Assembly: GCA_036172245.1 (NCBI GenBank)
Contig: JAYWIR010000018.1
Span: 1,426,001-1,490,000 of the forward strand
Direction of reading: 5' to 3'
From: Raillietiella orientalis
Taxonomy: Eukaryota
DNA: 64,000 bases
The translations under genes and the position numbers were made by a program. This document shows, piece by piece, positions 5,841-56,593 of this stretch. Numbering within the stretch: position 1 is the stretch's first letter; each line of letters starts with the position of its first letter. The notes beneath the pieces were generated by a model. The model ran no database searches, was not told the DNA's origin, and worked only from the letters and a program-made list of their open reading frames with translations.

Positions 5841-6266
5841 GTGAGAGAAGGATCCCGCTCTTCCTCCCTTCTCCTGCCAGCCCGTTGCCACAGTTTTCAC
5901 GTCCTGAAAGCGCTCCGGGAGGAGGCGGGAGCAAGGGGGCAACTCCCGGAGCCCCCTCCATTGTGCAGCGGCCGCCGATTGGCTGGCCTTGAGAAAGCAC
6001 GTTCTCGTAGCAGAAGTTCCCCTTCGCGAGTTGCGCAGGAGGTGGTGCTTCTTCCCTGCGAAGAACGGTCTGCCGGCAGAGGCCTGAGGTCGTTGCGGAA
6101 CCCGCCTGCCGTGGGGTGGGGAGGCAGGTTTCGCGCCCCGAGGGCATTCCCACTCCTTTTTCCCTTCAATAGGGCAGGCAGGAGTGAGGAGGTTGGACAG
6201 GACCCTCTTCCCTCTTTTCCATTCTCCCTCCCATCTCAACGCCCTTCCCCGTCTCCCACCTTCCAG

Positions 6267-7394
6267 AAGACAGAGGAGAGCTGGAGTATTGGATAGAATC
6301 CGGGAACGACGACGAGGCGTTCGCCATCTCTGCCACCAACGGCACGGTTCAAGTCAACCGCGCCCTGGACCGGGAGCTGAGGCCGTCGTACGCGCTGGTG
6401 GTCGTGGCCGCGGACAGGAGTCCGAGGAGGCTGTCTTCTTCCGCCCACGTGTCCATAACTGTGCGCGACGTCAACGACGTGACGCCGAGGTTCGTCAGCC
6501 CTCCCGAGGTCGAAGTCACGGAGAACGCTCCCGCCGGGACGATTGTGACGGCAGTGAAAGCGGTCGACGAGGATGAAGGGCGCAACGGTCACGTGGAGTA
6601 CTCCCTGGATCCCGGGTCACCCTTCTCCCTGGGCGTGGTGGACGGCATGCTGCGCCTGACCTCCCCTCTGGACCGCGAACTCCGCTCCAGCTACGCGCTA
6701 CGGATCACCGCGCGCGACAAGGGCAGACCTCCTCTGTCCGCCTCTCTCGACCTGGTGATCCGCGTCCTGGACGAGAACGACAACGACCCCGTCTTCGACT
6801 CGCACCAATACAGCGCCCTGGTCGCCGAGAACGCCAGCGTCGGCGCGGTGGTGACGCGCGTATCGGCCACGGACCTCGACTCCTCCTTCTCCTCCTCCTC
6901 CTCGACGGCTGGGAGCGGGAAATTCCCGGAGATCGGAGACGAGGAGCTCAACTACTCGGTGGTGGCCGGAGACCCCAATCTGGACTTCTCCCTGTCGAAG
7001 AGCACGGGCATCTTGCGCGTGGCGAGCAAGCTAAACCGAGAGAGGACGCCCCGCTACGTCCTGTCGGTGAGGGCAGAGGACTCCGGCGGGAGATTCGACG
7101 TCGCCACGGTCACGGTGATCGTCAACGACGTGAACGACAACGCGCCGGTCTTCGTGGATTCGCCCTACGTCGTCCATGCGCTGGAGAACAACGCGAGGAA
7201 GCTGCCGCTGGCGCTGGTCACGGTCCTCGCCCGCGACGCCGACAGCCCCGCCTACAGCACCCTCAGCTACCGGCTCAGGGACGGCGACAAGAGGTTCTCC
7301 ATCGACGCCTCAACCGGGGAAGTGGCTCTGCTGAGCCAACTGGACAGGGAAGAAGCGGAAACGCACACCCTCGTCGTGGTGGCCATGGACAACG
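6267..7394 (+). CDS. ft: Fat/FAT4-like cadherin exon (cadherin repeats)
   Basis: ttccag|AAGAC acceptor, AACG|gtagga donor. Repeated LDRE, DENDNDP and DVNDNAP motifs. 1128 nt, phase 1 to phase 1. Confidence 0.92.
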
Positions 7395-19310: not shown

Positions 19311-19391
19311 GTAAGGTCCCAGGGATCTGACTGCGCATCACAGAGTTTTCTCCCTCTCTTCTCTCTCCTTTCCTGTTCCACACCCCTGCAG

Positions 19392-22300
19392 GAGATTTCG
19401 TCTTCGGGATCACCGCGAAGGACGCCGACTCCGGAGAGAACGCTAAGGTCACGTACTCCCTGCGCGAGGAGCAGGGCACGCCGGCGTTTCAGATCGACCC
19501 GGTCACTGGGATCATCACCCTCAAGGAGCAGCGTCCCGGAGGAAGAAACGCCTCCATCCTCCGGATTCTCGCCACGGATTCCGGGACCCCCTCCCGCTCT
19601 TCGGAGATGGAGCTGACCGTCTGTTACCGGGAGAGGAAGCAATTTCCGTCCATCGGCCCGTCGGGTGGCCGCTTCGTGATCCGGGAGAACGCGGGGGACG
19701 CGCCCTCCAGGATCACCTCGCTGGAGGGTTCCTCGCCAAAGAGAGGGGAGCGGGGTAGAGTGCGCTACTCCATCGTGGGGGGAAACTTCGGAGGGGAGTT
19801 CTCGGTCAACGTGACCTCGGGGGAACTGCAGGCGTCGTCGCCGCTCGACCGCGAGGCGAGGTCCCGCCACGAGCTCTGGATCGGCGGTTGGGACTCGGAC
19901 GATCCGCCACTGGGCGCGTTCGTCATGGTGACAGTCGAAGTGGAGGACGCCAACGACAACGCGCCGTCCTTCGGCCTTCCAGCGTACAAGCTGCAGGTGC
20001 CCGAAGAGGAGACTCCCTTCTTCGAGCTATCCGCAGTCCGAGCGACCGACCCGGACAGCGGCGACAACGGTCGCGTGACCTACCGACTGCTTCCGGCGGA
20101 GAGGAAGGAGGAGGCGAGGATAGACGCCGACGCCGACGAGATCCCCTTCGAGATCGGCGAGACCACGGGGTTGCTGCGCACCACCCACAAACTGGACAGG
20201 GAGCAGCGCGACTCGTACGCGTTCCTCGTGGAGGCGTCTGACCTCGGCAGTCCTCCGCTGAGCCGCCGGACTCACGTCTTCGTGTCGGTCCTCGACAAGA
20301 ACGATAACCCTCCCCGCTTCAGCCGGCTGTTCAGCGTGAACGTGACGGAGAATGCCCCCGCGGGTACCTTCGTCGTCCAGGTGACCAGCTCGGACAGGGA
20401 CGTGGGAGCCAACGCTCGAGCAACGTACAGCCTGGTGGAGAACCCTGGTGGCAAGTTCGCAATCAATTCCTCCACCGGGATGGTGACGACCCTCGAGGTG
20501 TTGGACCGGGAGGAGGCGGAGGAGTACGCGCTGAAGGTGGCGGCTGAGGACGGGTCGTGGAGGTCGGAGACGCCCCTGACCGTGTCCGTTCAGGACGAGA
20601 ACGACAACGCCCCCGCGTTCCGCAGCCGCTCATACTTCTTCGAGATAGCCGAGTCCCCCAGCCCGGTTGCTTTCGTGGGACGGGTGGAGGCAGAGGACCG
20701 GGACAGGAAGGGAGCCAACTCGTTCGTGTCCTACTCTCTCCGACACCGCTCCGATCTTTTTGGCATCGACCCCAGCTCGGGGGAGATCCTTTCGAGGAGA
20801 GCGCTCTCTTACGAGCGTGGAGTCGTTCGCGGATCTCCCGGGAACCGCCACTCGCTCGTGGTGGTCGCGACGGACGGTGGCGTGCCGCCCCTGTCCGGGG
20901 AATGCATGGTCATCATCAGCGTCCTGGACACCAACGACCACGCGCCGAGGATACTCTCCAGGGACCTCTTCCTGCCCGTGGTGGAGGGCCTGGATCCTGG
21001 TTACCGGGTCGGTCGGGTTGAAGCTCAGGACGACGACGTAGGAAGGAACGCGGAGGTCACGTTCTCGGCTGCCGGGGGGAACGCGTCCTCGTTCCTGGAC
21101 ATAGAAGAGGATACCGGCTGGATCTTCCTCTCCCGGCGTCCCGACTCCAGGAGGAATGCTGTGTTCGTCCTGACCGTGCGCGCCAGCGATCAGGGCATTC
21201 CCCGACTCCACGACGAGGTGAACGTTACGTTCGTGGTCACAGGGGTCAACGCCTTCGAGCCAGAGTTCCTGGTGTCCAGCTATCAGGTCAGCGTTCCCGA
21301 AAACGAGCGTCCGGGAACCACGATCGTGACCGTCCGCTCGTTCGACCGCGATGAGGGGGTCAACGGGATGACCCGCTACATGCTGGAAGAGGGTGACCTG
21401 GATGGCACCCTGATCCTCGACCAGGACACGGGCGACGTGGTTCTGGGACGCCCGCTCGACTACGAGCTTCTCCGGGAGTATCGCCTGAACATCAGCGTGG
21501 TCGACTCAGCCATGTTCCCTCGCCGATCCGTGGCCACACTGACCGTCGTGGTCACCGACGTCAACGACAACATCCCTGTTTTCAACAGCTCCGAATTCCA
21601 TGTGAGCGTGCCTGAGAACTTGCCTCCGGGAAGCTGGGTCACCGAGCTGTCTGCAAATGATCCGGATTCGCCTCCCAACGCTGTCGTCCGCTATGCCATC
21701 GTGAGCGGAAAGGACAAGGACAGGTTCTCCGTGGGGGAAGACACGGGCATCGTCTTGGCCCTGGTGACCTTCGACTACGAGATCAATAAGGAGTACTCCG
21801 TGAACATCCTCGCCAGCAACCCAGGCACAAGCTACAGTGGGATAGCCAAGCTGAAGGTGCACGTAACGGGAGTCAACGAGTACTTCCCCAAGCTGGCGCA
21901 GTCGGTGTTCCGCTTCTATGTGTCCGAGTCGGTGCCTGTGGGCACTGAGGTGGGCACGGTGACCGCCAGCGACCAGGATGACGGAGAGGACGGGGAGGTC
22001 TTCTACCTGCTAGTCGGTCAGAGCGGAGAAAAAAGCTTCTGCATCGACCACGATTCCGGGGTACTGAGAGTCGCGCGACCCCTGGACAGGGAGTCCCAGA
22101 ATCGCGTGGTGCTCACAGTGATAGCCAAGAACGCCGGAAGCATCCGGGGAAACGACGTGGACGAAGGGCAGATTATCGTGACCATTCAGGATGACAACGA
22201 CCCGCCTGCGTTCGCCAAGCCCTCTTACCAGGCCAGTGTCTCCGAGACGAGTCGCATCGGCTCCGAGGTCATCGTGCTTCAGGCCACAGACAGAGATGCC

Positions 22301-24339
22301 AAGCCACCCAACAACCAGTTCGGCTACTGGCTGCTTCCTGATCCGGAGGTCGGTGGCAGAGATGGCTCTGAGCTCCCCTTCCGCATCGACCGCGTCTCTG
22401 GCCGCGTGGAGACCGCCGCGTCCCTGGACAGGGAGCGCACCGAGTCCTACCACATGCTGGTGATCGCCATCGACAAGGGTTCCCCTCCGAAGACAGGGAC
22501 GGCCTCACTGGTCGTCCTCGTGGAGGACGCCAACGACAACGCACCCGAGTTCCCCGAAGGCGGTCTCCGGGGGTTCGTCTACGAGAACGAACCCTCCGGC
22601 ACCGTGGTGATGGTGCTGTCGGCCTTCGATAGGGACTCCACTGCCAACGGTGCTCCCTTCTCATACTTCTTGGTCGACGATGGAAAGCTCGAGCCGCCCT
22701 TCGAGCTGAAGAGGAGCACCGGGGAGCTCTCCACGACCCGTGGCCTGGACCGCGAGACGGATGCTGAGTTCTTCCTCGCTGTCCGCGTGGAGGACTCCGG
22801 CATCCCGACCCTCTCCTCCCTGCACAAGCTCCGAATCTCCGTCCTGGACAAGAACGACCGCCCATCGAGACCCAGGAGGGTCAGGGTGCACGTGTTCTAC
22901 CTGGCGGGAACCTTCTCCGGGAAGATTGCGGACATCCGTCCCCTGGACGAGGACCTCACGGGGGACTACCGGTGCTCCTTGGCTTCGGGAGCTTCCGGAG
23001 GCTTCCTGTCCGTGGAGAGAGGCTGCGAGCTCCACTCCTCCAGGAATGAAGAGGATGACCTTGTCGTCAACTTCACCTCGTCGGGAAACGACGGCGTCCA
23101 CGACAGTGTAGTGTCCTCAGTGTCCGTGAGCTTCCGGACGCTGAGCAACTGGACCTTGGAGAACGTCGTGGTCCTCAGCATGATGAACACCACCCCGAGC
23201 GCTTTCCTCCAGAAGGGCTACCGGGGCCTGGTGGAAGTCCTGGAGGAGCTCTTTCCCCGCGACGAAGTCATCGTGTTTTCCATTCTGCCCGTGGACCACC
23301 GCTCTGACGTCTTCCTCGTCGTGAGAGATTCCTCCGGCTACAGGAGCCCGCAGGAGATCAGGCAGAGCATCCTCTTGTCGGAAAAGAGGATTTCCAGAGC
23401 AGTGAACGTGCAGGAGTTGGTCGTGGACTTCCGTCTGTGCTCCGAGTCGCCGTGCAGAAACTACGGGCAGTGCTCGGAGGTCATCAACATTAACAGGGAG
23501 ATTCATATCGCGGACAGCCCCTCCTTGGTCATAACGTCCCCTTCACTGAGCAGGCAGACAACCTGTGATTGCCCGGAAGGATTCATTGGCCCCAGGTGCG
23601 AGTTCCGGAAGGATCCTTGCGCGTCCAGCCCCTGCTTCGAAGGCGCCTCCTGCATCGACCGCGGCTTCGATTTTTACTGCCAGTGCCCCCTTCACAGGGA
23701 AGGAAAGACGTGCGAGGTGGTCATGCAGAGGGTTTGCGAGAGCGACCCCTGTGCCAATGGGGGAACCTGCCAAGAAATGGCCTTGGGGAAGTTCTTCTGC
23801 CTGTGCCGATCCGGGTTCGAGGGGGTGAGCTGCGAGACCGTCTCCGATTCGTGCCTGCTCCACCCCTGCAAGAACGCGGGGAAGTGCGTCAACAGCTACC
23901 CTGGGTATTCCTGCTTCTGCCCTGCCAACTACTTCGGCGCCCACTGCGAGAAATCCTCTCTGGGGTTCACGAGGCTGTCCTACGCTCAGTACCCCAAGCT
24001 CGACCCCAGCACCAACGATATATCCATCACGTTCTCTTCCAACCAGAAGAACGCACTGCTGGCCTACAACTACGGGTCGTCCAACCAGGGAAGGTCCGAC
24101 TTCTTGGCCCTGGAGATCGTGGACGGAAAGCCGCGCTTCTCGTACGCAGGCATGCGCACGACGACCAGCTCGATCCAGCTGGACAAGGACGTTGCTGACG
24201 GCGAGTGGTACAAGCTGAACGCCATCAGGAACGGCAAAGTCATTTCCCTGAGTCTGTCCGTGTGCACGGACGGTGAGAACTGCACCGAATGCGACCTGTT
24301 CGACTGGGGTTGCTACGTGGACGGCCACGGAACGGCAGG
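19392..24339 (+). CDS. ft: Fat/FAT4-like cadherin large exon: cadherin repeats, EGF-like repeats, first laminin-G domain
   Basis: 4948-nt open exon (contains ORF 19607-24343) with many cadherin repeats, Cys-rich EGF modules (CxNGGTC, CxCxxGFxGxxCE) and LamG (DFLALEIVDGKPRF, VADGEWY). ctgcag| acceptor, |gtgagt donor. Confidence 0.95.
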
Positions 24340-24473
24340 GTGAGTCGCAGGAAACGCCAGAGAAGATCTCTTCTTCGCCCCCTTCTCCCTTGTCCCCCCG
24401 CCTCTCTCTCCTTTTCTCGCTCTCTTCTCATGCCCTTCTCCCACCCCACCTCTACTGATTCGTGTCTTTCCAG

Positions 24474-24975: not shown

Positions 24976-25490
24976 GTAAGGGTCAAGGCCTCGACCTCTC
25001 TTCACTTGTCTCGTCCTTGCGCACTCACCCTCGCAGTTGGTTCTCTAACCGCGCCGAGAACCGCCAAGCAGTCCTCGGACGCTTCCCTGTTCCCCTTCTC
25101 TTCACAGCTTTTCCGGCACGCATGTTTCCCTTTTTCAACCGTTCCCTCGGTAAGCGGAGCGTGGACTCCTCCCGGTAGGGGGAGCGAGCGATCCGTTCTC
25201 TGAAGCCCCCTCGCCCCCAGCAGGTCTCGGCCCGGCGGCAGCGGCAGCGATGGTGGTGGTGGTGCGTAGGGAGGAGCGGGAAGAGGCAAGTTTCGCGAGA
25301 GGAGGAGGAGAGCAAGGGTCACAGGGAAAAGATCGAGGAAGGCTTGTTCTGTGGAAACCAAGTTGCCCCTAGGCTGTGAGGGTGACCGGTCCCTTTCCGG
25401 GGTGTCCACTTTTTCCGCGTTACCTGTCCTCGCGCCTCCTTGAGTGTTCGGAGGGCAGAAAAATTCATTCCTTCTCCCTTCTCCTCGCAG

Positions 25491-27293
25491 ATCGAGAACG
25501 GGATCCTGAGGTACACGTCCAGGTCGGGCACGCAGTCTCCTGTGGATATGACCGACGATGGGAACACCAGGCTGGATAACGGGAAATGGCACAACGTCAC
25601 CCTGACCTCGGACGAGGACTACTTTTCCCTCCTTCTGAACGGAAATCCCATCGGGGAGGAGCTGGATGTCCGGATCATCCATGACTTTCTGGACCCGCGC
25701 CTGACGCGGCTTAGCATCGGCGGAGGGGACATCCCGCACAACCACTCCGGTAAGTCCCCCGTGACAGGGCGAGGAGAGGACTACTCCTCTTCCGCCTTTC
25801 CTCCAGGATTTCATGGGTGCATGTCTACATTGGTGATCAACGGTGTCGTGCAGGCGTTCATCGGTGAGGGACCGTTCCTGGAACCCGTCCACCACGGGTC
25901 CGTCCACTTGGGCTGCTTCCCAGAGGCTTTCGGCGCGCCGGGCTCCGCCGACCCTCTCAGCATCGGCGTGACGCTGGTCATCGTATTCTTCGTGGTCCTG
26001 CTCGTCGGCCTGACCATCAGCCTGGCGGCATTCCGCCTGCGCAGGCTCCGTAGGGAGAAGCCAGGAGACCCGCGCAAGCAGAACGGGTTGGCTCCGTCCG
26101 GAGGCGGCCGCTACGCGGCCAACGGTGTCCACACGGGCGACGCCCTCAAGTCGCGCCTGCAACCCGGCCGCCGGATCAAGGAGCTGGCAGACCGACCTCC
26201 GCGGCCGGATGTCCTCGAGAGGGAGATGGCGCCGCCACACCCCATCGTCCGCTCTCATCCCTTTTCACCTCCGCTCCCGGACGCCGCCGAGTACCCGGAG
26301 CACTACGATCTGGAAAACTCCAGCTCAATCGCCCCTTCCGACATCGACGTGATGTTCCACTACCGGGGCTACCGCGACGAACCCCTCAAGCGGTACAAGT
26401 CCGGCCCGCGCCCGCCGCCCTCCGTCTACAAGCACAGACACTCCCCCCATCAGTTCCCTCCTTCCCCTTCCCCGCGAGACTTGGTGCGGAATCCCGGTGT
26501 CACCTCCTCCTCGAGGGGCTCCCCCGGGACTCTCAAGATGCAGAGCACCCCTCTGGCGAGACTGAGCCCCAGCAGCGAGCTTTCCCACCCCAGGATCCTC
26601 ACCCTCCAGGACATCAGCGGCAAGCCGCTGCAGAGGGCGTTCCTGGCCGGTTCCCAGGGCGCTCGCATCAAGGACGTCACCTCGGCGAGCGAGCGCAGCC
26701 TCAACAGTCCCATCTCCCGGCTCAGCACGGGCAGCACAACGTCCCCTCCCCCTTCCCTTGAAGAAGACAAGCGCGTCGTTGCGGTGGACCGGTCGCGCGG
26801 TCGCGGCTCCGGGGCGTGCAGCCTCGTCAGCACTCTGGACGGGATGTCGGACGACTCCGACGGCGGGGGAGGTGGTGGTGGCGGCGGCGACGTGGCCGGA
26901 GGCAGCGTGGACGACGGAGACTCCAGCTCGGAATGCAGCGGGAACGACTCGTTCACCTGCTCGGAGATGGAGTACGAGGCCGGGAAGGACTTTGGGTCGG
27001 AGAACTCCTTCTTGCCCTCCGGGAGGTTCCCAACGGACAAGGACTTCGACTCCTTCCGCGGTTCCCTGAGCACCCTAGTCGCATCGGACGATGAGCACTC
27101 CGTGGTCGGCGGACGCTCGGGCGGGGTCTACGCCAAGGGCTCCGACTTCGGCTGGGACCACCTGCTCAACTGGGGTCCCAACTTCCAGAGCCTCATGGGG
27201 GTCTTCAAAGACTTGGCAGAGTTTCCCGACTCCCCAGCGCTGAGGTCGAACCACAGATTCGAGATCAGAAAGCCAGACGAGGAGTACGTGTGA
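25491..27293 (+). CDS. ft: Fat/FAT4-like cadherin last exon: LamG, transmembrane helix, intracellular domain
   Basis: TM segment IGVTLVIVFFVVLLVGLTISL. Fat/FAT4-type intracellular motifs EHYDLENSSSIAPSDID, SFTCSE, FRGSLSTLVASDD, WDHLLNWGP and C-terminal EEYV-stop identify the Fat (ft)/FAT4 class rather than Fat2/FAT1-3. Confidence 0.93.
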   Translation: MENGILRYTSRSGTQSPVDMTDDGNTRLDNGKWHNVTLTSDEDYFSLLLNGNPIGEELDVRIIHDFLDPRLTRLSIGGGDIPHNHSGKSPVTGRGEDYSSSAFPPGFHGCMSTLVINGVVQAFIGEGPFLEPVHHGSVHLGCFPEAFGAPGSADPLSIGVTLVIVFFVVLLVGLTISLAAFRLRRLRREKPGDPRKQNGLAPSGGGRYAANGVHTGDALKSRLQPGRRIKELADRPPRPDVLEREMAPPHPIVRSHPFSPPLPDAAEYPEHYDLENSSSIAPSDIDVMFHYRGYRDEPLKRYKSGPRPPPSVYKHRHSPHQFPPSPSPRDLVRNPGVTSSSRGSPGTLKMQSTPLARLSPSSELSHPRILTLQDISGKPLQRAFLAGSQGARIKDVTSASERSLNSPISRLSTGSTTSPPPSLEEDKRVVAVDRSRGRGSGACSLVSTLDGMSDDSDGGGGGGGGGDVAGGSVDDGDSSSECSGNDSFTCSEMEYEAGKDFGSENSFLPSGRFPTDKDFDSFRGSLSTLVASDDEHSVVGGRSGGVYAKGSDFGWDHLLNWGPNFQSLMGVFKDLAEFPDSPALRSNHRFEIRKPDEEYV

Positions 27294-32734: not shown

Positions 32735-35700
32735 TTACATTTCTTCCAATGTTAGTGATTGTAACTTGAGTTTTCCTTCCTCACGTGCATCATCTTCCAG
32801 TAAGGGTAGGTGAGTTATTTGAGAATTAAGCAAATGACTGGGCACATAGAAAACATTATTTCCAACAGACATCTTGGACTGCAACAATAATAGTGACTTC
32901 CTCAACTGATATGTTTTTTTTGCCATTTCCGCCTGGCAGACATAGTCCACTGGGCAGTTAACAGAAAGCAATGCATGTTGATGTGACAATGTCATCAGCT
33001 CTGATTGCAGCTGCTCCAGTTCATGTGGTTCTGCAATTCTATCAGCAAGTCTACTCCAGACCTGAGACACCCGCAAATATCTGGAAAAAATCTGGCCACC
33101 CTGAGCCCAATCGGCTATATGTTGCTGATGAGGAGTCAGTTGCTCCAACATTTCTTCAAGGAAATGATGGCGCTCATTCACAACAGCACTAGCAGCAAGG
33201 TGATGTACCAGTATGTGATGACACTCAGCCCAAAGTCCAGCTTTAAGAAGGTATCTGGCTTCTGCCTCATACAACTTCTCAGAGTGGGCATGCACAGCCT
33301 TAGCACCATATACCCAGCTAGCAGGAAGCTGGAGAACATCCAGCAAGAATGCTTCCTGTTCTGGATTTTCTACTGCTGAAGCTTGCCTCATAAGTAAATG
33401 CTTAATGGCAACAGCACGCTGCTGCACATGACTGAGATGTAACAACACGAAGGCAGCCCACTGCCACAATCCCAGTGATTCCAGCTGACAAGCATAATCC
33501 ATATGTAACTTGTCAATACTATCTGGCAAAAAATGTACATCTGGCATAGCACCCAAGCATTCAAGAAGCAACCAGCTGTCTGCAATAAATCAATCTGGCA
33601 AGTTCAAAGTCTTCTTACCTCAGTCTGCACTCCAGAACATCATCAGTATGTCCTGCAGGACAAAGCAGCTTTCCTGCATGCTGACAACACCCACAATACA
33701 AACACAACAGCTGATATCGCAAATCCCATGGACCTTCTTTCTCGTGTTTCTGCACATATGGAGCAACAGGTGGATATCCATATTCCATTTGGGTAAAATT
33801 ATGCTGATACTGTAGTAAAACTTCTCTGATGGAAGCAAAAGGTGGACAAAAGTACCACAAATGCAAAGCAAATGTACGCAACCAGTCAAGGTCTGCACAT
33901 GTACTGATCAACTGCTGACTGCTTTGCCACTCAGGCAACCCAGCTAATAGTGCTATTAACTTTAAGCGATGTACATCCACAAACTGATCTGCTTTATGCT
34001 TCCGCCAAAAATCCAGCTGGCAGACCAAAAGTTCACGGAAAACATGAGAGCCAAGTGCTTGGCACAGCAATAATGAAAGACGCCAATCACCATTCTGTTG
34101 TGCTACATTTGCAGCTTGGGTAATCTGAAGCCCTGTCAGGAGACTAAATATGATGTCAACATGAGATTCATTAAGATGGCGTTCCATCTTTCCACACTCC
34201 TGTTTGATATCCACTGCAGTAATTTGCTCCAGCCAATGACTAAGCATCTGCCTTCTGGATACTTGTTCCTGATAGCTGTTGGCTTCTATGCTCTGATTGA
34301 GATGTTAAATTCTGAACAAACATACCAAATTTCTTAGGAGAAGAAAGACGACCCCAAAGAGCCATACATAGGTTCCAAACTTGAGTCTCATAAGTGCTGC
34401 TAGATGAACGTCCTGCTAAATTAGACAAGGCATGAATGGCCTCTGGACCCAATACAGTATGAGCTTGGGGACATTCATTACAATCAGGGGTGGTAATCTT
34501 GGTTAGCTTGAGCAAAGCTTTTAGGAATTCCTCATGCTGTTGTGTGTTCTGATTGCTATTGCCCAGCTGTTTGATGAATACAGGACGAGATGGGGGAAGC
34601 AGGAGGGAGTTACTGTCATCCAAACTACGCCATGGATGAATCCATTGCAGTGCAGATGTCCATCCCACTCGGAAGGAGCAGCCCATAAAGCTACTCCAAT
34701 CACCAAATTTTTGTCCAATTTGACCCATCAAAGATAAAGTCAAAGACAATTCAGCATATGGTTGAGATAAGTTTGTTTTTGGTATTAGATGGGGTCGTAT
34801 CAAATCATTCTGCAATGAAGTGACCAGGGCAGAAGCCTTCTCAGAAGCATAATAGTTCTTATGCATCTGAGACACCTTAGCACCAGGTCCAAGTGGTCGT
34901 TTTAATAAGGCTTTGCCTCGGGGAAGTAAGGCAGATAGAGCTGAAAATCACTGAAATGCGATTGCAACTCCTAATAACAGCACTCACAAATTTCTCCTAT
35001 TTCCTCTTCCTTTTCTTCTTCAGGAAAGAAGCATGCTTTCATGAGCTGCACGCGTTGGCTGGAAGCTCCCAAAGCTTTAGCTAACTTCTGAGTAGAAGGT
35101 AGGATTGCTGAATGAGAATCCTTGGGAGCCACATCTTGCATTTCTTCATCAGTATACAAAGCAGATGATATCATTGGAGACAAAAAATCTTTTGAAGGAA
35201 TGGAGTCTATCATCAAGTCTCCTTCTTGAGCTGCTTGTGGAATAGGTTGCTGTTGTAGTTGCAAGGGAGGACCACTGGCAACTGGTAACTCTTCTTCATC
35301 TGAATCTTGTAATCCATACTTAGAAAAATGAGGTACCTACAAATCTTTGTATTTAAAAAAAAAACACACACAATTACAAGTCTGAAATTCACCTGAAATA
35401 TCCAGGAACCCGTCTCTGGTTTATAATCCAGAAATTTGGCACCCATGTGAAGAGTTGCCCGCTCTAAACGTTCAGCATAAGCTAAACTCTTAATACGCTC
35501 AGGGTCAGATATTGGTGTGCGTGTTGTTTTGTCACTAGGCCACACACAATCTAAGGTTACTTCAGCTCTCCGATTTAATCCTTGTCCAAAAGGAGGTTTT
35601 TGAGAATCATCAGGATATACAATTACTTCCTTGTGTCTTATATGTACTGAAGCAACTCTGATATCCAAGAGTTCCATTTCACATACCTATGTCATCAAGA

Positions 35701-38700
35701 TGTAACCCTGCAACATTGATGCTTCCAGGAAAATAGATGCTTCCATAGCCTTGTCTGCCAACAGTGAATCCATCCACCCAGCATTCATCATGCTCATCTA
35801 CCTGAGTGGTTAAGGCTTCTAAACTAGGAACTGTATAATATCCGCAACGTTGCAAAATAATCCCAGCAGGATGTAGTTGCTGATCACCACTGTTTATATT
35901 AAGTCCTTCATTTTCTCCTCTGAATTTTACAGGAAGTATTTGGGTATCACCATCTGGTTCCAAAATGAACTTTTTTTCATCAGCATTCATAACAGTTATT
36001 GTGTCTTCTGAAACAACTGGAAACATGTTTCCAGAGTCAGTGCATACACGTGTATTGGCAAAAACATGGGGTATGAATTCTGGAGTCGACACAAATCCAT
36101 ATTTCGAAAAATGAGGCACCTAAAGAACCTTTTATTTTCAATGAGTACATACACAGTTCTCACCTGAAATACCCAGGAACCTGTCTCTGGTCTATAATCT
36201 AGAAATTTGGCACCCATGCGAAGAGTTGCCCGCTCTAAACGTTCAGCATAAGCTAAACTCTTAATACGCTCAGGGTCAGATATTGGTGTGCGTGTTGTTT
36301 TGTCACTAGGCCACACACAATCCAAGGTTACTTCAGCTCTCCGATTTAATCCTTGTCCAAAAGGAGGTTTTTGAGAATCATCAGGATATACAATTACTTC
36401 CTTGCGTCTTATATGTACTGAAGCAACTCTGATATCCAAGAGTTCCATTTCACATACCTATGTCATCAAGATGTAACCCTGCAACATTGATGCTTCCAGG
36501 AAAATAGATGCTTCCATAGCCTTGTCTGCCAACAGTGAATCCATCCACCCAGCATTCATCATGCTCATCTACCTGAGTGGTTAAGGCTTCTAAACTAGGA
36601 ACTGTATAATATCCGCAACGTTGCAAAATAATCCCAGCAGGATGTAGTTGCTGATCACCACTGTTTATATTAAGTCCTTCATTTTCTCCTCTGAATTTTA
36701 CAGGAAGTATTTGGGTATCACCATCTGGTTCCAAAATGAACTTTTTTTCATCAGCATTCATAACAGTTATTGTGTCTTCTGAAACAACTGGAAACATGTT
36801 TCCAGAGTCAGTGCATACACGTGTATTGGCAAAAACATGGGGTATGAATTCTGGAGTCGACACAAATCCATATTTCGAAAAATGAGGCACCTAAAGAACC
36901 TTTTATTTTCAATGAGTACATACACAGTTCTCACCTGAAATACCCAGGAACCTGTCTCTGGTCTATAATCTAGAAATTTGGCACCCATGCGAAGAGTTGC
37001 CCGCTCTAAACGTTCAGCATAAGCTAAACTCTTAATACGCTCAGGGTCAGATATTGGTGTGCGTGTTGTTTTGTCACTAGGCCACACACAATCCAAGGTT
37101 ACTTCAGCTCTCCGATTTAATCCTTGTCCAAAAGGAGGTTTTTGAGAATCATCAGGATATACAATTACTTCCTTGCGTCTTATATGTACTGAAGCAACTC
37201 TGATATCCAAGAGTTCCATTTCACATACCTATGTCATCAAGATGTAACCCTGCAACATTGATGCTTCCAGGGAAAAAGACACTTCCATAACCTTCTCTAC
37301 CAACAGTGAATCCATCTACCCAACATTCTTGGTTTTCATCTACCAGAGTGGCCAACTCTTCCAAACTGGGGATGGTATAATAGCCACAACGTTGCAAAAC
37401 AATCCCAGCAGGATGTGGTTGCTGATCACCACCACCTATCCTCGGTTCTCCATCTTCTTTCGAGGTTTCAGGAGTTATTCCAGCATCACCACCACCTGGT
37501 TCCAAAATGCGGTTTCCTCGATTAGCATTAAGAACTGCTATTGTGTCATCTAGGGAGTTGTTTCCAGAGGCATTGCATAAAAATTCGTCAGAAACCAAAG
37601 GCTGCCTAAGTTCTGGAGTTGAGGTAAATGGCTGCAATCTAGTTACCATGTTAATAAGTAGGGAACTCCATGCTAATTACCCACCTAGATGTCAATGGCT
37701 CAGCTACTGAATTATCTCCCTCCTTGACTGCATCCACTGTTACATTCTGAGGATTATCATCTGAAGTGCTTTTCTGGATGACCAGTCTTTTCCAACTTTT
37801 TCTGGGAACAAATGCTCTTGGACTGACAGTTGTATTGTTTTCTTCCAATCCTTCAAATAAAGAGGAACGATTCATAGCTATTGGAGTGATGGGGGTAGGT
37901 CTCAGAGCTGACTGCAATTGAGAGCCAACTTTGTACTGATTGGCACGCAGAAATGCCCTCTGATAAATGGGATTTGTAGGTTTTAATATCTCCTCGCGGC
38001 GTCCTGTGTCATGCAATATACCACGGAAAAGAGGTGAATCTCCATAAGGACTGCTTGCCAAAGAAAGCACTTGTTGATGCACATCTTGGACCTGAGTCAC
38101 TGGGCCCATGCTATCACAAATAAGCAAACATACATGTCATGTAGCTAAATTACCTGCTAGTTTGCAAATTTCCGACATTCAAGTTAGAAGTACTCATTCC
38201 TATGGCACTACCCATTCCAAAAGGCAAAGTGTTACCAAAACCTGATGGAGTTCCAAAATTCATAATTCCAGGTTTATTGGTCAAACTGGAACCAAAAGGA
38301 CTTGGAGCCTGCCCTGCCGTAATCCCTGTGGCTCCAAAACTGGGAGCAGCAGCACCAAAATTGAATGTGCCCATAGTTGTGGCTGGTTTATTGGCACCAA
38401 AAATTCCACCCGTGGAAGCTGGTTGTGCACCAAAACCACCAAAGCTGCTGGCAGTGGAAGTGAAAGGAGCCCCAAAAGCAGCTGGTTTGGAGCCAAACAG
38501 AGATGTGTTAGTGGTTGCAGGGGCACCAAAAGTAAAAGTACTAGGAGCAGTTGTAGTACTCCCAAATGTTGGTTTATTACTAGCAAAAAGGCCTCCCTGG
38601 AATATCAACTTGATGATGGTCCTCTGGAACTTATCTACTAACCTGTTGCTGGTTTGTCTGACCAAAAGTAAAAGCTGTTGTTCCAAAACTGGTGGGCTGA

Positions 38701-40718
38701 GAAGTACTTGCCCCAAACAGAGTACCAGTAGGTGCTGTAGCTGAAAAGAATTACATTTGCTGGTTGGGATTCCAAATTAAGTTTCTAATAAACCTCCAAA
38801 TAACGGCCTATTACTCTGTCCAAAAAATCCGCTACTGCTGATAGCTGGAGTGCCAAACACAGATGAAGTAGTTGCAGGTGTTGCAAATGTTACAGGTTTG
38901 CCAAAAGTAGGTGCCTGAACTTGGCCAAACAATCCACTGGCACTAGTGACAGCTGGAGTGCCAAAGCTTCCTACATGACTATCTCATAAGAATCAACAAC
39001 TATGTGAACACTAAATTTACCAAAAGCTGGTTTGTTAGCTGTAGCACCAAACAGTCCACCTGTTGCTGGTGTGCTAGCATTAGCACCAAATAGAGGTGTA
39101 GTTACTGAAGCACTGCCAAATCCTAAAGGCTGACTTCCTTTACGGTTTGCTAAGTAGTCTTCATAACGAAGTTCCTGAAAGTTTTCAGAACAATAACTTG
39201 ATTTATCCACAAAACACTTACTTCCAGAGACTTAGTTTCATATTCTTTCATGCAAGTAATACATTGATGCCTTGTGTTGATCTGAGTTTGAATGCCATTT
39301 TTCATCATGGTATCATTGCCAGTTGGAGGACTGTATTTCATTGTTGTGCCTGTAGGTTGGTTTAGGGAACTGGTACCAAATGTGGTACCAAATAAACTGC
39401 TAGCTGTAGTGGTAGTAGGAGTTTGTCCAAATAATGATGAACCACCCGGTGCAGAAAACAAACTGCTCCCACTAGACATACCAAAGCCACCAAATACAGG
39501 CTTATTGGCTTGTCCAAATGTCACAGTATTCTGGCCAAAAAGCGTGCTAGGTTGAGAAGCTCCAAACAAACTTGTGGATGGTGCATTAAACCCTGAATAA
39601 AAACATTCATAGGTATCCACGATATAACACCGTACCAACCTCCAAAAGTGCTCGTAGTTGCTGGAGCAGCAGCACCAAATGATGTGTTTGCATTTCCAAA
39701 CAGACCACCAGTATTTGTGGTACTAGAACTGCCAAACATGGAGGTGTTTGTACCAAATGATGAAGTTCCAAAACCTGCTGGTTTGGTGCCAAATGCTGGA
39801 GACTGCTGACCGAACAAATTAGTGGAACCACTGAAAGTTCCTGGAAATTGCACACAAATATCAAAAATCCATCCAAGTTTTACACTGTATAAATTTCATT
39901 CACATGAACCACACAATACATACTACAAGCAAATATATTCAGCTGCTGCCTTAATGTTAACAACAAATGTTGCTAGTATTATTTCAAAACATAAACGACA
40001 GCAAATGAAAATGGAATAAATGATTTTCTTACTACTTTGATGTACATGTTCCACACAAGTTGGTTACATATGCAAATTCTAAAACCCACTATTATGTCTG
40101 ACTTCGGTGTTTTTCACATCCGTGAGGTTTTTGTTGATTTGCATTTAAAAAGGAAGGATTAACTCATCAATCTATGGACGCATACACAAAAAAAAAAGGA
40201 TCCCTGATTTCTAAATTTGAAACACCAATCTACGATTTGATGAAACAAATAACTAAATCAAATCTTTGGCTTTTCCTTTTTTTCCTATTTAAAAAATAAT
40301 GGCTATATATACTGCAAACAGAATATACTACAAATTACGGTGAGATCGGATCTCGAAAGGAAAGAATTACGGGAAACAAACAGGTCTTTTTTTCTTTGAC
40401 ATTTGGAAAAGCTCAAGAGAAAAAAATGACATTCCCAAAGTTCAGTGGATTCATTCTTAACGCTTTTTGAATGTAATGTATCGTACATCGGAGTTTGTAG
40501 GGATACTTTGGGGCATTTTTCAAATTTTAATCTAAAGATGGAAAATGAGCTATTGGACATACACCCGAAATCCCTCACCCCAACAGTTGATAGGTATTCC
40601 CATAATTTTATAGAAAATAACTCTATACTGGTAATAGGTTTGCAAATCTCATCAAACAATATTAAAATTAGACGATTAAAAGCATACCTGAACCAAAAGC
40701 TGGTTTATTGCCAAACAT
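32735..40718 (-). CDS. NUP98: Nuclear pore complex protein Nup98-Nup96 precursor, 18 exons, ~2136 aa, with three tandem autoproteolytic domains
   Basis: Exons in transcription order: 40718-40688, 39840-39640, 39592-39222, 39174-39021, 38970-38794, 38740-38643, 38596-38154, 38110-37685, 37638-37229, 37188-36935, 36890-36458, 36417-36164, 36119-35687, 35646-35393, 35336-34988, 34940-34326, 34285-33619, 33575-32735. All introns are GT-AG and all phases join (6411 nt). Contains FG/GLFG repeats, GLEBS motif ([23 protein letters not shown]), SPYGDSPLF, autopeptidase domains (HPAGI...KPPFGQGLN...[14 protein letters not shown]) and the Nup96 body ([29 protein letters not shown]). Confidence 0.95.
35393..37638 (-). 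repeat. Tandem 771-bp-period repeat (3 copies of the Nup98 autoproteolytic-domain exon pair)
   Basis: ORF ends at 35679/36450/37221 are spaced exactly 771 bp. Unit = 433-nt exon + 40-nt intron + 254-nt exon + 44-nt intron. About 35636-37271 reads as a perfect repeat; the outer parts are diverged. Confidence 0.95.
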
Positions 40719-49453: not shown

Positions 49454-52400
49454 TCAGGGTGGGTTCCTCGATGTTGTTGTCTGGGCTTCGTCCTCAATCC
49501 TCTTCAGGATGTAACGGTACGTCCAGGCCTGGAGTCTTCCACAATTCCTGATACCGATCTCCTTCTGGATCAATCCTTGCAGAATCTCCATCAGAGATGC
49601 GGCTATCCTGGCTTTCCTAATCTTCCACCACCGCACAAGTATAGCGGTGATGAGGAGAGCAATGGTTGTTCTCACCATAGGGTTGTAGCAGGGAACATTT
49701 GCATTTCCCTGAGACATCCCGGCAAGTGTTCCCATCACCGAGGTGGTGGTCATTCCTATGATCCTTTTCAGGATAAGCCAGTCTCGGAGCAGTGTGGGAC
49801 ACGTCAAGACGTGTAGTCTCGTATCCGTGTCTCCACATGCCTGGCAGTCTTCATCTTCCCGTTTTCCAGTAAAATATTTTAATCTAGACCCGCTCAGGGT
49901 TCCTCCGTGGTAAAACATCAGGAGGTTGTCCTGGGTGTCCTGCGGAAGGTCACTCCTCCAGAGTGTCGTGCCGATCGCTAACAGGTAGATCCTGTCACTC
50001 CCGTAGCGATCAGCGGCTTCCTGGAGGGCACTGATGTCCTTATCCTCTTCAATTATCAGTCTTCGGAGGTCTTGTTTGTTCACCCTGGACCAGGCGAAGT
50101 CCCTATGGTTTTTCCACACTTCGCATGTCCCATGGTAAATCTTCCTAACATCATCTCTATATACTGAAGTATCCGAGAATGATGTAGGTATTCTCCTCTT
50201 CTCCATTCCTGGATACGTTGTAGGTTAATTCTGGGCCGCTGGTAGATCCAGCTTCTCGTATCCGAGGGCACTTGAAGCATCCAACGGATCACCAGGATGG
50301 ATTCCTCCTGCCAGAGTTCCCTACTTCTTGGGACAATCTTCAGTTGGTGCTTTCGCACCAGCTGTTGCTTCCCTCTCCAGGTGGGGTCGATGGTGAGCCA
50401 TTCCCCTGCTCGCCCTAGCAGCACAGTCATAGGGCCTTCCGAGTTGTTTAACAACATCCAGTAGGCTCTGTGAGCCGCGTATGGCCAGTCATCCCATTGA
50501 GCAGCGATTTCCAGGATCTGTTGCGTATCCATGATTTCCACGGAATGTGCAAGCGACTTCATCCCGGAACCGCCCTCTTCCTTGTGACGACACAAGGGTT
50601 TCAATGTAACCCTGGGACGATATTTCCCCCAAAGGGTTTTCCTCTGCAGTTTTTCCACTTCTCTGGTGGTGTCCTTGTTCAATCGGTGGGAGGCCGCTCC
50701 GAAAAGTGTCTTTGGAAGGAGTACTCCATTCCAAAGACTGGCCTTCCCCTTCATGCCAAGGTCCAGTGAAGTGTACTTTGCTGCTTCCTTCGCTGTTTTC
50801 TCTAGGATTTCTGTCCATAATAGTTTCGACGCGAAGTCTCCGTCAATGTGAACTCCTAGTTATTTAGGGTGGTCCACTGTTCGGAATGCACTTCCCGTGA
50901 GCACGGAGAGTTCCAGAATTCCGATAGGCAAAAGTTGGCTTTTCTGGGCATTGATTTTCAAGTCCAATCCCTTTTCCATCAGCTCCATCACATCCAGGAA
51001 CGCTTTCTGTTCTCGTTCTCCCTTGATGAAGAAAATGAGATCATCCGCGTAAGTCAGATTTGTGAGCTTTTGATCGTCGATGGTAATTCCATGGAGACGT
51101 CCACCTCTCTCGATGAAAGAAGACAGTGCCTCCATGTAGATAACAAACAGCATCGGGCTTAGTGAGTCGCCCTGACGGACTCGTCGTTCCATCCGAATAT
51201 CTGCTGTTTCTACCACGTTGATAGTAATTCGAGAGTACTGCTTCTGAAGTACCATCCTCATGAAGTTGCTGAAGTATTCCGGAAGGCCCAGCTTTTCCAT
51301 AATCTTCAGCAGCATCCCATAGTCGATAGTGTCGAAAGCCTTCTCCATGTCGGTGAACACCAGCACCAGGTTCTCACCGATGAATCGGCTAAGTCCCACA
51401 GTGGCCTGGGCACACTTGACATTGTCCGACATGTGGCGTCCGGGCACCGCGCATGACTGAACGGGAGAAATCAGCCTCGGTATAACCTTGCCTAAGCGGT
51501 TGGCCCAGATCTTTGCCAACCACTTGGTATCAGAGTTCAAGATTGAGATTGGCCTCCATTGGGCAACCTTGGTTAGGTCGCCTCCTTTTGGCAACAATTT
51601 CATCCTACTCTCGTAGAAGAATTCTGGTAGTCCTCCTTCTTCTCGGATGCAGAGGGTCAGCTGGTGGAACAAACGCAGGTAAGCATGCAGGTACCTTGGG
51701 TAGTGCGTCATAGGAACACTATCCGGGTCTGCCGCCACATCCTTGCGTAATTCCAGAAACGCAGCCTTTATCTCGTCTTCGTAGAAATCCTCCTCCAGTC
51801 TCTTCCTTTGGAGGTCATCCGTCTTCTTTCCTAGATGCTTCATGAAGACCTTTTGATTTATTACACACAATTGTTGTCGTCGGAGGTGCCCCGTGTAATG
51901 CCTTCGAAAGACATCCACGATGTCTTCCGTCGTTCGTCGACTATAGCCGCCGTATTGGATACAGAAGATGCCTGTTGTCAGATTCTTCCTTTCCAGCACA
52001 CCGACTTCCCCTTTAACATTTTGAAAGACGTACCGACTCTCGTACTGTTCGTAGTACCTTGAGAGAGAGCGATCTTGGGTGTTCAACTCCCGGTACGCTT
52101 CCTGTCTCAACCTCTTGTCGGCAAACTGCATATTGCAGAACAAATGGATCCTATGATTCACACTGTCCCAGTCGGCGACTCTGCTGATAGTTGTATCTCG
52201 CAGAATCGCCTCGATGACTTCCTGGTGACAGGGGAGCGTCTCGAACCAGGAGGGCATGCAGATGAGCGCCGCCCTGGTGGCCTTGTTGCGACGAGGATTT
52301 TCCGTTCGGAGGGAGAACCGTACTAACGGATGATCAGACAGCAGAGTCTGCATGTCACGAAATCCTTGTATGCGGTTCTCGATTTCCGAACTATGCAGGA

Positions 52401-52774
52401 CATGGTCGATCGGCTTGTGGCTAGCTGTTCTCCACTGAAGTTCAGAATCATCGGACAGCCGCCGATACGCCGTCCTTCCTCTAGCGTCCTGGGAATGGGT
52501 GATCACATCCAGAATGTTCAGATCACCTGCAACGATGAGAATGTCCTTCGGTGCGACTCGTTTGCGGAGAGCTTCGTGCAAAGCCTCCGCGCACCGATGT
52601 TTCAGCTTCCATATACGTTCACCAGGAACAGTGAACGTTAGCGGACCAGGACAGCTGTACGCCGATAATTCGTCCAGGCATGGGACAGAAGCTTTCCAGG
52701 ATTGTGTGGGCGAGCTCGTTCTTCACGAGGATCGCCACACCCATGGTTTTCTTTTGCCCCTTGCTGACGAACAG
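49454..52774 (-). pseudogene. Element A ORF2 (APE endonuclease C-part, reverse transcriptase, C-terminal zinc finger), disrupted
   Basis: ORFs 50860-52581, 50080-50754 and 49454-50206. Premature TAA at the usual KYLG position (50860) and a frameshift near 50200. Confidence 0.9.
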
Positions 52775-53690: not shown

Positions 53691-56593
53691 TCACAACCCG
53701 CTAGAGGAAGAGACTATCCTTTCCAGGATGCCCTCGAGGTCCCTCGTCATAGCTCCCAGATGGGACCAGCCGATCGCGATTCGCAGGTAGCGACCCGCGT
53801 GTACGATGGGGTCCCTGTCGCTGCTCCCTCTGTTTGCTGCGCTCCAGGCGGCCACAATCCCTCGGAGGCAGCAGAGCGCTGCCAGGGTTGAGGCTGGTGG
53901 CAGGGCGTCTCGCACGAAGAGGAGTCTCACAACGTCTCTGGGGGTACTGCCGGCCGGCATAGGGAGGGTCGTAGCATAGCGTTCCCACAAGGGCCGAAGG
54001 GCAGCGCAGTCCACTAACAGATGGGGGAGGGATTCCTTCTCCCCACACACTGCACAGTTCTGTCTCACGTTCCCCAACGTCCAGTGGTGGCGGCGCGCGT
54101 TGCAGGGAAGACCCCAGTGCAACAACAACAGCGCCGTTTCCTGCCACTTGAGGGGGAGGGTGGATGCGTCTCTAAATAACGGGGGCCACTCTAGGTCATC
54201 CGCCGGGATGCCAAGCAGCTCGCCCCATCTCCGTATTCCATGCGGGTGAACGCTTGGGGTTGCGGCGTCTGCCAGTTCCCTCATTGTCCACCCGCTTAGA
54301 TCCTTCTCCTTGCCCGCTTTCCGGCAGGAGACTTGCCATCTCGGCTTCCGGCTGTTTTGAAGCGCCCTTCGTAGGAAGGGCAGCGCCGTGGCCAGTGGGG
54401 TCGTCTCCGCCCAAGTGCTTCTGGCGGGACACACGGGATCATGTTCCGCAGCGTGCAGCGGGTGTAGATGCCGGTGCGCAGGCGGTTGCAGGATTCTCCA
54501 CTGATGTGTTTCAACTTTGCCCACGTTCCAACTGTTTCTTCCAGCCATGCGCTGGAGTTGGCAGGGCTGCAGGCCATCCACCCGTTCTCCTTTGCCAGGG
54601 TGGCCATGCGTCCCAGGAGAACTCCGCATCTTCTTATTTTCCGGCCGGGGCACAGAAGAAAAGACGCGAGTCCTTCAGTCCCGGACACACGTCTGGCGAG
54701 AAGGCGGGCTGGAACGCACCAAGGGGTGTTCCACATTTTCGCTGCGATGGCTAGAGTACGCCACCGCAGCTGTGTTTCCATTCGCTCCATCGTCAGGACG
54801 CTAAGACCTCCGTCCCGACGTGGAGCGCACAAATCCTTTAAAGGCACACGAGGCCTCCCGCCGCCCCACAGGGCGATGCGTAGGTCCTTTGTTCTTTTTT
54901 TCAGTTCACGGGGTACGGGGCAAACAAAAAGCAGAGGGCGAAGGAGGGGGGCCGCGAACGCGTTCCACACAGCGGCCCGTTCCGGCAAGTGAAGCTTGCC
55001 TTCCAGGAACGGGCCGATCGCTGACTCCACTTTTTGGAGACGACCTGACCTTCTGACTGGCAGAAGTCCCCCAACGGAACGCCGAGGTACTTCAAGTACC
55101 TCTCCGTGGGGATCCCCAAGCGGATCCAGTCAGGCCGTCCGACCCACGTCGCACCAACCGCTACCACCGATGACTTCGCCTTATTTACCCGTAGTCCAGT
55201 CCCGCAGCTAAGCAGATCGAAGAAATCCTCGACTGCGGCTGCCGGGGCGGACATGGGCAAAAGGAGCAGAAGATCATCGGCGTAAGCCGCTACGGCCGGC
55301 GTACCTAGACACGAGCTTGGCAGGGCAGCCAATGTCACCCTGTATGCTCTCAGCACCAGTTCGAAATAGGTGCTAAAGAGCAGGGGACTCAGGCTGTCGC
55401 CCTGCCGGATGCCGCGCCTCACCGGCACGCCGAACATGTGCTGTCCTCTGAAAAACAAGTTGATGATCGCATTGCGCCAGCAGGCGCGCAGGTAGACCGT
55501 TAAGGTGTCCGGGAAGCCCATGCGATCCAGGAGCTCCAGAAGGAGTTCCTGGTCCACGCAATCGAACGCTTTGTGCAGATCGACTGCGATCGCTAGAGCC
55601 CCCTTTCCTTCCCGGTCGTCCCTTACTTGCTGCGCTGGCGCCCTCAAATCAGGTTTGTCGACATTCCGTTCTTTTTCCAAATTTTTCTCGCGTTGCACAT
55701 GGAACCATGTGCTGGCGAAGAACAGGTTCGCTTCCATGCTTCGTCCGGGAACAGCGTACGTCTGTTCCGGGCTGACGAAGCTGTCAGCTACCTGCCCCAG
55801 TCGCGCAGCCCACAGTCCAGCCAGCAGCTTGGCGTCCGTGTTCACAATCGTGATCGGACGCCAGTTGCATAATTTTCTGAGGTCTCCTCCCTTAGGAAGG
55901 AGCCTCACCCTGGCTGACCGAAACGAGGCGGGAACATCGCCTTCGTTTTGGATCAGCCGTGTCAATTGGAGCACCAGGGGGGTCAGCTCTGCAGCGAAGC
56001 ACTGAAAGAACTCCGCCGGCAGGCCGTCCTCCCCTGGCGCCTTACGCCTCTTGAGCCTTTTAATAGCGGTGATGATTTCACCGGTCGTAAAAGGCTCGTC
56101 GAGGCTTTCTTTCTCCTCCTCTCCTATGGCCGGGGCTCCATCTGGGAGCAAGCGCCGCGAGACGTCCCACTCCGCAGGTACCCTGGCTTAAAGGGAGGAG
56201 TAAAATCCACGCACGAGGCGACGTATCGATGCCGGGTCCGAGTATTTCTGGTCCAGGTCGTCCAGCACGCTGGGCGGCCCGGTTTGCCAGGCTTGACGCT
56301 CGGCCCCGGCTTTGTACTCGGCCAAGCGACGGATGTCAGGGGTCCTCGCGAAACGACAGGCGTGCAAATACGCTCTTTCGTTGCGGGCCCCCTTACCAAA
56401 TCCCCGGGGCAGGCGGTGCACAGGGAACTCCTCGCAGAACTCGCGGACCGAGGCCTTCATGCGGTCCCAGTCTTGGAGATTCCGGAGGATGACGCCTCCC
56501 AGTACTTGGCGGAGATGTTCTGCCGCACCTGAGATGCGCGTCCAGTCCCCGGGCAGACGCCACGCCCTGGATGGTGGTCCTTTGTCGCGAGGC
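53691..56593 (-). pseudogene. Element B ORF2 3' part (reverse transcriptase and CCHC domain), frameshifted
   Basis: Overlapping ORFs 54901-56151, 54296-55030 and 53691-54653 with RT motifs and CAVCGEKESLPHLLVDC. Confidence 0.9.

Follow-up and report, generated by a model that had tools for sequence, protein, structure and literature searches.

Can the precursor of the nucleoporins Nup98 and Nup96 carry more than one self-cleaving domain and, if so, which products would leave it? The question is raised by a stretch of 64,000 nucleotides from Raillietiella orientalis (contig JAYWIR010000018.1, positions 1,426,001 to 1,490,000 of the forward strand; hereafter the window, in whose own coordinates all positions are given), in which the exon pair for the Nup98 autopeptidase domain stands three times in succession within a single Nup98-Nup96 gene. 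A single cut in the precursor is the first task of this domain, and the second is to anchor the main barrier-forming phenylalanine-glycine (FG) protein to Nup96 or Nup88. As described in the sections consulted of one study, self-cleavage of the Nup98-Nup96 fusion takes place in cis while the protein is being translated or soon afterwards, and the domain then anchors Nup98 via the flexible Nup96 N-terminus or the Nup88 propeller; Nup96 residues 1-20 were used in the binding assay (PMC11148069). In the same sections, nanobodies that block the contacts of the Nup98 domain are described as arresting pore assembly early, and the Nup98-Nup96 contact is proposed as a checkpoint of this process (PMC11148069).

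An earlier note on this DNA had proposed a four-piece nucleoporin polyprotein with three tandem domains. Here, we report a computational analysis of the gene, and we put at about 55% the probability that it is a genuine in-frame tandem amplification from which Nup98, one or two modules lacking FG repeats, and Nup96 are made. Extra FG-less copies of the domain, each with its own ligand end, would constitute a natural experiment on the number of docking domains that a pore tolerates. The gene also bears on whether the link between Nup98 and Nup96 can be indirect, and on how a self-cleaving module multiplies into a polyprotein.

The autopeptidase exons and their reading frame

The Nup98-Nup96 gene was modelled on the minus strand at 32735-39841 with 16 exons and 15 introns of 35-56 nt, and the spliced model is an open frame of 2158 amino acids (aa). 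Pfam matches and tblastn colinearity with three orthologues give the order of its parts: FG repeats with the Gle2-binding sequence (GLEBS), then three autopeptidase domains, and then Nup96. The GLEBS family PF21240 is matched at 68.1 bits upstream of the domains, beside the FG-rich exons, and the Nup96 domain PF12110 is matched at 147 and 85.2 bits in two downstream exons of the same frame. The automatic intron model takes the shortest possible introns and misplaces some donors (for example, 36925 for 36934); exon 38759-38154 is probably misframed in part by it, and the N-terminal length of Nup98 is therefore approximate. The first coding exon was not located, the 1.2 kb upstream (40700-39500, 31-42% guanine plus cytosine, G+C) having been read without an obvious start.

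All six repeat exons match PF04096, the autopeptidase of peptidase family S59, well above its gathering cut-off of 28.4 bits (12 stretches were scanned, three of which gave no family). Each first exon matches positions 2-53 of the 148-position profile: A1 (37229-37638, 43.8 bits), B1 (36458-36890, 43.5 bits) and C1 (35687-36119, 43.5 bits). Each second exon matches positions 49-141: A2 (36935-37188, 90.7 bits), B2 (36164-36417, 90.7 bits) and C2 (35393-35646, 90.5 bits). Since first and second exons jointly cover the profile, three complete PF04096 domains are present, with a 40-nt intron inside each. A1, the ancestral-looking copy, encodes a linker and the N-terminal half of domain A, and A2 encodes the C-terminal part, which ends in ...WVFQ. 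B1 comprises the first cleavage site (VPHF/SKYG), a linker region of 77 codons and the N-terminal half of domain B; B2 encodes the C-terminal part of domain B and has the same sequence as A2. Similarly, C1 has the same sequence as B1 and holds the second site, and C2, which encodes the C-terminal part of domain C, departs from A2 and B2 by seven nucleotides and four residues (R>H, R>H, R>K and V>I). The third site lies at the start of the first Nup96 exon (34988-35336, minus strand, read from the sequence and the gene model), the 3' end of which is either 34988, with a GTGAGT donor, or 34979, both in frame.

The six introns from A1 to the Nup96 exon measure 40, 44, 40, 44, 40 and 56 nt, and every one is of the GT..AG type. 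Across this region the spliced frame is free of stops, while the other two frames hold 51 and 74. Splicing of exon 2 to the SKYGF exon would join ...TTTCAG to GTGCCTCATTTTTCG. A1 has 410 nt and begins after two carried-over bases, whereas B1 has 433 nt and begins at a codon boundary; a module thus consists of 433 + 254 nt, that is, 687 nt or 229 aa, which is the module size given earlier.

The cleavage motif VPHF/SKYG follows every domain, with F/S at 36879/36878, 36108/36107 and 35325/35324, and the QKPP...GLN motif is kept in three of three copies. At position +5 from the cut, the modules have F, and the site ahead of Nup96 has L. Exon 2 aligns without gaps over 84 residues to solved Nup98 domains of human and frog (115.7 bits to 3tkn_C), and exon 1 likewise aligns without gaps to a solved Nup98 domain (76.6 bits to 1ko6_A). 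Furthermore, when three single-domain orthologues were aligned to the window, each gave three domain matches, colinear with the remainder of the gene and with E values of 1e-17 to 1e-60, so the triple domain is not a matter of chance. Four sequence hallmarks of a Nup98-Nup96 or Nup145 precursor are present, namely PF04096, HF/S-KYG, FG and GLFG repeats with the GLEBS, and Nup96 in frame; what differs is the number of autopeptidase domains, usually one per precursor and here three. The earlier note had read the exon pair three times in one open, correctly spliced frame and had placed both motifs in each copy, and the six PF04096 exons, the GT..AG introns and the absence of stops bear this out, with the F/S coordinates exactly as it gave them.

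Repeat history and the number of units

How old are these copies, and are there really three of them? A repeat search finds three tandem units on the minus strand, at 37638-35337, spaced 771 bp; Tandem Repeats Finder, the maximum period of which is 500, reported nothing. The differences between the units are sharply partitioned. Between A and B there are 154 differences in 771 positions, none of them beyond the first 379, and the two are identical from unit offset 379 onwards, while B and C are identical up to offset 473 and differ at 45 positions, all from offset 474 (seven in exon 2 and the remainder in the following intron). Consequently, self-comparison shows a region of exact 771-bp periodicity at 35635-37271 (1637 bp or 2.1 units, with no mismatch in 866 compared positions), the footprint of what appears to be the latest gain of a copy. 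Copies B and C are not independent of each other. A1 and B1 are about 75% identical, and no alignment is possible between the intron that follows C2 and the one that follows A2 and B2.

From this pattern, the three copies are of two ages, with an old duplication that separates A from B/C and a third unit to which no age can be given. The exons of the older pair have diverged unequally: A2 and C2 differ by 7 nt, with a synonymous divergence (dS) of 0.055, whereas exon 1 of the same units has a dS of 0.48. The similarity of exon 2 indicates a gene-conversion tract with sharp limits. The old duplication is bounded by a point inside A1, ahead of F-T-S-T-P-E, and by one behind SKYG, eight codons into Nup96, so each extra module begins with its own cleavage site, and the coding length of the unit, 687 nt, keeps the frame. 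At the junction of the old duplication (...GGATT|TGTG...), both parents read ATT, a possible microhomology of 3 nt (36870-36862 versus 37630-37622 and 35316-35308).

We infer the following history. The old duplication would have copied the segment from the linker through VPHFSKYG, including the first eight Nup96 codons, and thereby created a second complete domain with a site of its own. The 3' halves of this two-domain gene would then have been homogenised by gene conversion. The ancestral two-unit gene may accordingly be written as U1 (A1, exon 2a and intron 2a) followed by U2 (B1, exon 2c and intron 2c), and one recent unequal crossover in an identical tract of 95 bp would give U1-[B1 + exon 2a + intron 2a]-U2. 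The putative crossover site, assigned from the mosaic, lies at 37177-37271 on the minus strand and reaches from the last part of exon 1 across the 40-nt intron into exon 2; its counterparts are 36406-36500 and 35635-35729. The mosaic composition of the third unit matches what a single unequal crossover would be expected to produce. In its general features the locus resembles known cases of tandem exon duplication with concerted evolution, as it has a homogenised 3' part, a diverged 5' part and a newest unit that is a mosaic of its neighbours.

The same mosaic is, however, predicted equally by a real unequal crossover and by an extra pass of the assembler through a loop, and does not discriminate between them. 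The third copy may be either very recent, and possibly polymorphic, or a miscount by the assembler. If it is a miscount, the true gene has two domains and gives three pieces with one free module; we regard this as a serious, though minority, alternative. The exact periodicity described above fits such an extra pass, and the assembly graph of a two-copy gene would hold exactly such a loop. On the other hand, assemblers usually collapse such loops rather than expand them, and the 64-kb window contains no N and passes through copies of a long interspersed nuclear element (LINE), which suggests reads long enough to span the 2.3 kb; a long-read assembly, and hence a correct count, is likely on this ground.

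One pairing of bases is unique to the middle unit, a B/C-type base at 36501, A on the plus strand, with an A/B-type base at 36405, C on the plus strand; the two lie 97 nt apart. A public sequencing run (X1; share 0.07) gave two exact contigs of 151 nt and two matches of 35-37 nt that are less than 90% alike. One of the exact contigs equals 36044-36194 without a difference, running from the last part of exon 2 through the 44-nt intron into the SKYGF exon, and fits equally well one unit upstream. It confirms the duplication junction and not the copy number, and the contigs of X1 do not include the pairing unique to the middle unit, as would also be the case for a two-domain gene. Thus, the three units of the earlier note stand in the sequence as it had read them, but the third is identical to its neighbours, and of the proposed four-piece product only a two-domain, three-piece gene is secure as a minimum.

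Selection and splicing of the second domain

Whether the second domain has been maintained as coding sequence can be judged from the divergence of A1 and B1, for which the 67 codons of the domain in the first exon were compared. Non-synonymous divergence (dN) is 0.084 and dS 0.478, giving a dN/dS of 0.18 (15.5 synonymous differences at 43.8 sites and 12.5 non-synonymous differences at 157.2 sites; Fisher p = 1e-5). In the linker, dN is about equal to dS, as in disordered linkers. Even so, the B1 linker is free of stops for 77 codons, with a probability of about 0.003 from composition alone, and the other two frames of B1 hold 7 and 13 stops; the differences in length between the A and B linkers are whole codons. 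These values point to purifying selection on the duplicated domain and to long retention of the second domain as coding sequence. Purifying selection is the best argument for translation of the extra domain, and a two-domain state that is biological and selected is well supported. The signal on the second copy also suggests that this state is no accident of one genome.

The introns between the units are tiny (40-56 nt), and all are expected to be removed, giving a predicted mRNA that runs from the FG and GLEBS part through domain A, module B and module C to Nup96. Alternatively, the extra exon pairs could be skipped and A2 joined to the Nup96 exon at 35336, yielding a normal single-domain protein in which the duplicates are silent. 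The frame would survive the skipping of one or two modules, each being 687 nt long, so the transcript would remain readable. Nevertheless, a dN/dS of 0.18, in-frame indels and a 77-codon linker without stops are unlike an exon that is never translated, and introns of 40-56 nt are normally recognised singly, so exon skipping is rare among them; we therefore consider this outcome improbable. Tandem exon duplicates often serve as mutually exclusive alternative exons. Here, unlike in such pairs, the intron phases forbid an exchange, and successive units extend one another in frame. The option that A1 and B1 replace each other was rejected because splicing from the upstream exon to B1 breaks the frame, A1 needing the two carried-over bases and B1 starting at a codon boundary.

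Several observations weigh against the amplification as a genuine and functional one. The third unit is base-for-base identical to its neighbours. The X1 contigs have a depth of 2-3 and lie outside the span that fixes the copy number, and X1 may be the source sample of the assembly itself. The inclusion of the extra exons in the mRNA is a prediction from the gene sequence. In the searches reported below, no relative was found that shares the multi-domain architecture and would show its fixation in a lineage. Finally, nearly all amino-acid replacements that followed the old duplication occurred on the B lineage: among 113 library homologues aligned over at least 55 positions, 84 are closer to A and 12 to B, with 17 ties, and at the 11 residues that differ between A and B the commonest state of 61 ungapped homologues is found in A at nine and in B at none. 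Because the change is concentrated in this way, constraint on B is weaker than on A.

This asymmetry bears on a further alternative, in which translation takes in the extra domains but cleavage at the internal sites is poor or absent, so that tandem domains on one Nup98 chain serve as a multivalent anchor and no free modules arise. The B lineage took at least nine of the 11 residue changes, and position +5 is F after the internal cuts rather than the L found at the Nup96 site, both of which could signal impaired cutting. Yet HF/S-KYG is kept in all three copies, the C-terminal two-thirds of the domain are identical (A2 and B2) or 95% identical (C2), and the changes on the B lineage are conservative (V/I, I/V, E/A, A/T, L/Q, N/H, E/Q and F/Y), and we judge an uncut chain to be unlikely. 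The amplification with cleavage at its internal sites remains the reading that we follow for the products below.

Predicted products, known precursors and genomic surroundings

What would such a gene make? Leaving aside the unlocated first exon, the modelled pieces have 878, 229, 229 and 822 aa, close to the approximate sizes proposed before (about 859, 229, 229 and about 819). The two modules, of 25.8 and 25.7 kDa with an isoelectric point of 5.1, differ from each other at four residues, and each contains one FG, against 38 FG and three GLFG in the modelled Nup98 part. Like the one domain found in other species, each domain here would cleave itself in cis; self-cutting by all three is expected because each matches the fold in length and keeps HF/S-KYG. 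The products would then be Nup98, one or two FG-less modules of 229 aa that start with SKYGF and end with the domain, and Nup96. If each domain stays bound to the SKYG end just downstream, the default would be a non-covalent chain, Nup98-B-C-Nup96, in which domain C, instead of Nup98's own domain, sits on Nup96. Unbound modules might also compete for sites on Nup96 or Nup88 or associate head to tail. Cleavage at the internal sites, binding, and the chain and competitor roles are what we infer from sequence. The polyprotein reading of the earlier note is plausible and in part supported. More specifically, and only tentatively, the modules may be FG-less adaptors made in fixed stoichiometry, each with a SKYG end, an acidic linker and a docking domain, which daisy-chain Nup98 to Nup96, polymerise head to tail, or cap Nup96 or Nup88 sites. 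If this is true, the contact between Nup98 and Nup96 would have a natural regulator or spacer built into the gene itself.

The animal Nup98-Nup96 and fungal Nup145 precursors show the same order as this gene, with FG repeats and GLEBS, a linker, a domain ending in HF/S and a Nup96 that starts with SKYG. The known precursors compared have one domain, whereas here there are three, or at least two, and hence three or two cleavage sites; unlike them, this gene predicts FG-less products in which the SKYG ligand end and the binding domain are combined. Several copies of the C-terminal domain in one organism are also found in yeast, where, in the sections consulted of a second study, the three paralogues with the domain, Nup145N, Nup100 and Nup116, all bind Nup82 in vitro (PMC8907234). 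The yeast copies thus share docking sites, but they lie on separate genes, each with its own FG domain, whereas the copies here lie inside one frame and are predicted to occur one to one with Nup98 and Nup96.

To place the arrangement among sequenced proteins, exon A2 (84 aa) was searched against 1.84 billion representative proteins, giving 1561 hits at E values up to 0.001. The findings that follow concern the best 150 of these hits, and representatives at 50% identity can hide variant members; multi-domain proteins would nevertheless sum their scores and rank at the top. One matched stretch was found in 148 of the 150 and two stretches in the remaining two, P0054 and P0057. These two and seven of the longest hits were all single-domain by Pfam (nine of nine), the domain of P0054 being split by an insertion, and no multi-domain Nup98 was present among the 150. 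The highest identity was 73%, so that no close relative appears to be represented in the protein set. In word-based protein searches, a bird Nup98-96 matched at 59% over 44% of exon B1, and a spider Nup96 matched at 35%.

A local tblastn with exon A2 found a second domain in none of 22 matched metagenome loci (for 13 of which 1 kb or more flanks the match on each side), while the window, used as a positive control, gave three. Likewise, no metagenome stretch matched a degenerate DNA pattern that encodes the junction peptide HFSKYGF-x-STPE. The nearest relative of exon 2 in these data lies on a metagenome contig of 1848 nt (L018:1531-1659, 86% over 43 residues), which ends 189 nt past the match. 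In a full-text literature search, the coverage of which leaves out subscription journals and supplements, no Nup98 with more than one autopeptidase domain was described. Multi-domain Nup98 is therefore uncommon in the databases searched, and the earlier note, which had no described example to cite, agrees with the literature covered. The gene family itself is known, and the tandem multi-domain arrangement in Nup98-Nup96 would be new among the sequences compared.

The gene lies between two blocks of higher G+C. A classic cadherin gene adjoins it at 1-28500, with plus-strand open reading frames (ORFs) at 6188-7783, 19331-24343 and 25386-27293. Its giant exons (up to 1670 aa) contain 11 matched Cadherin stretches as well as EGF and laminin G domains, and its G+C content is about 60%, compared with 41% for the Nup98-96 gene, with a sharp fall at 28-30 kb. 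For this cadherin, a single Atlas row exceeds 0.9, a CELR3 fragment cluster, the commonest phylum of which is Chordata (five members with known phylum), and arthropod neural-cadherin rows at 0.85-0.88 are rated as leads only. On the other side, a second block of about 60% G+C carries LINE-type reverse-transcriptase ORFs (RVT_1 and zf-RVT) on the minus strand at 50860-52722, 53691-54674 and 54901-56187. The best database relatives of these ORFs are at most 32% identical, which suggests a poorly sampled lineage.

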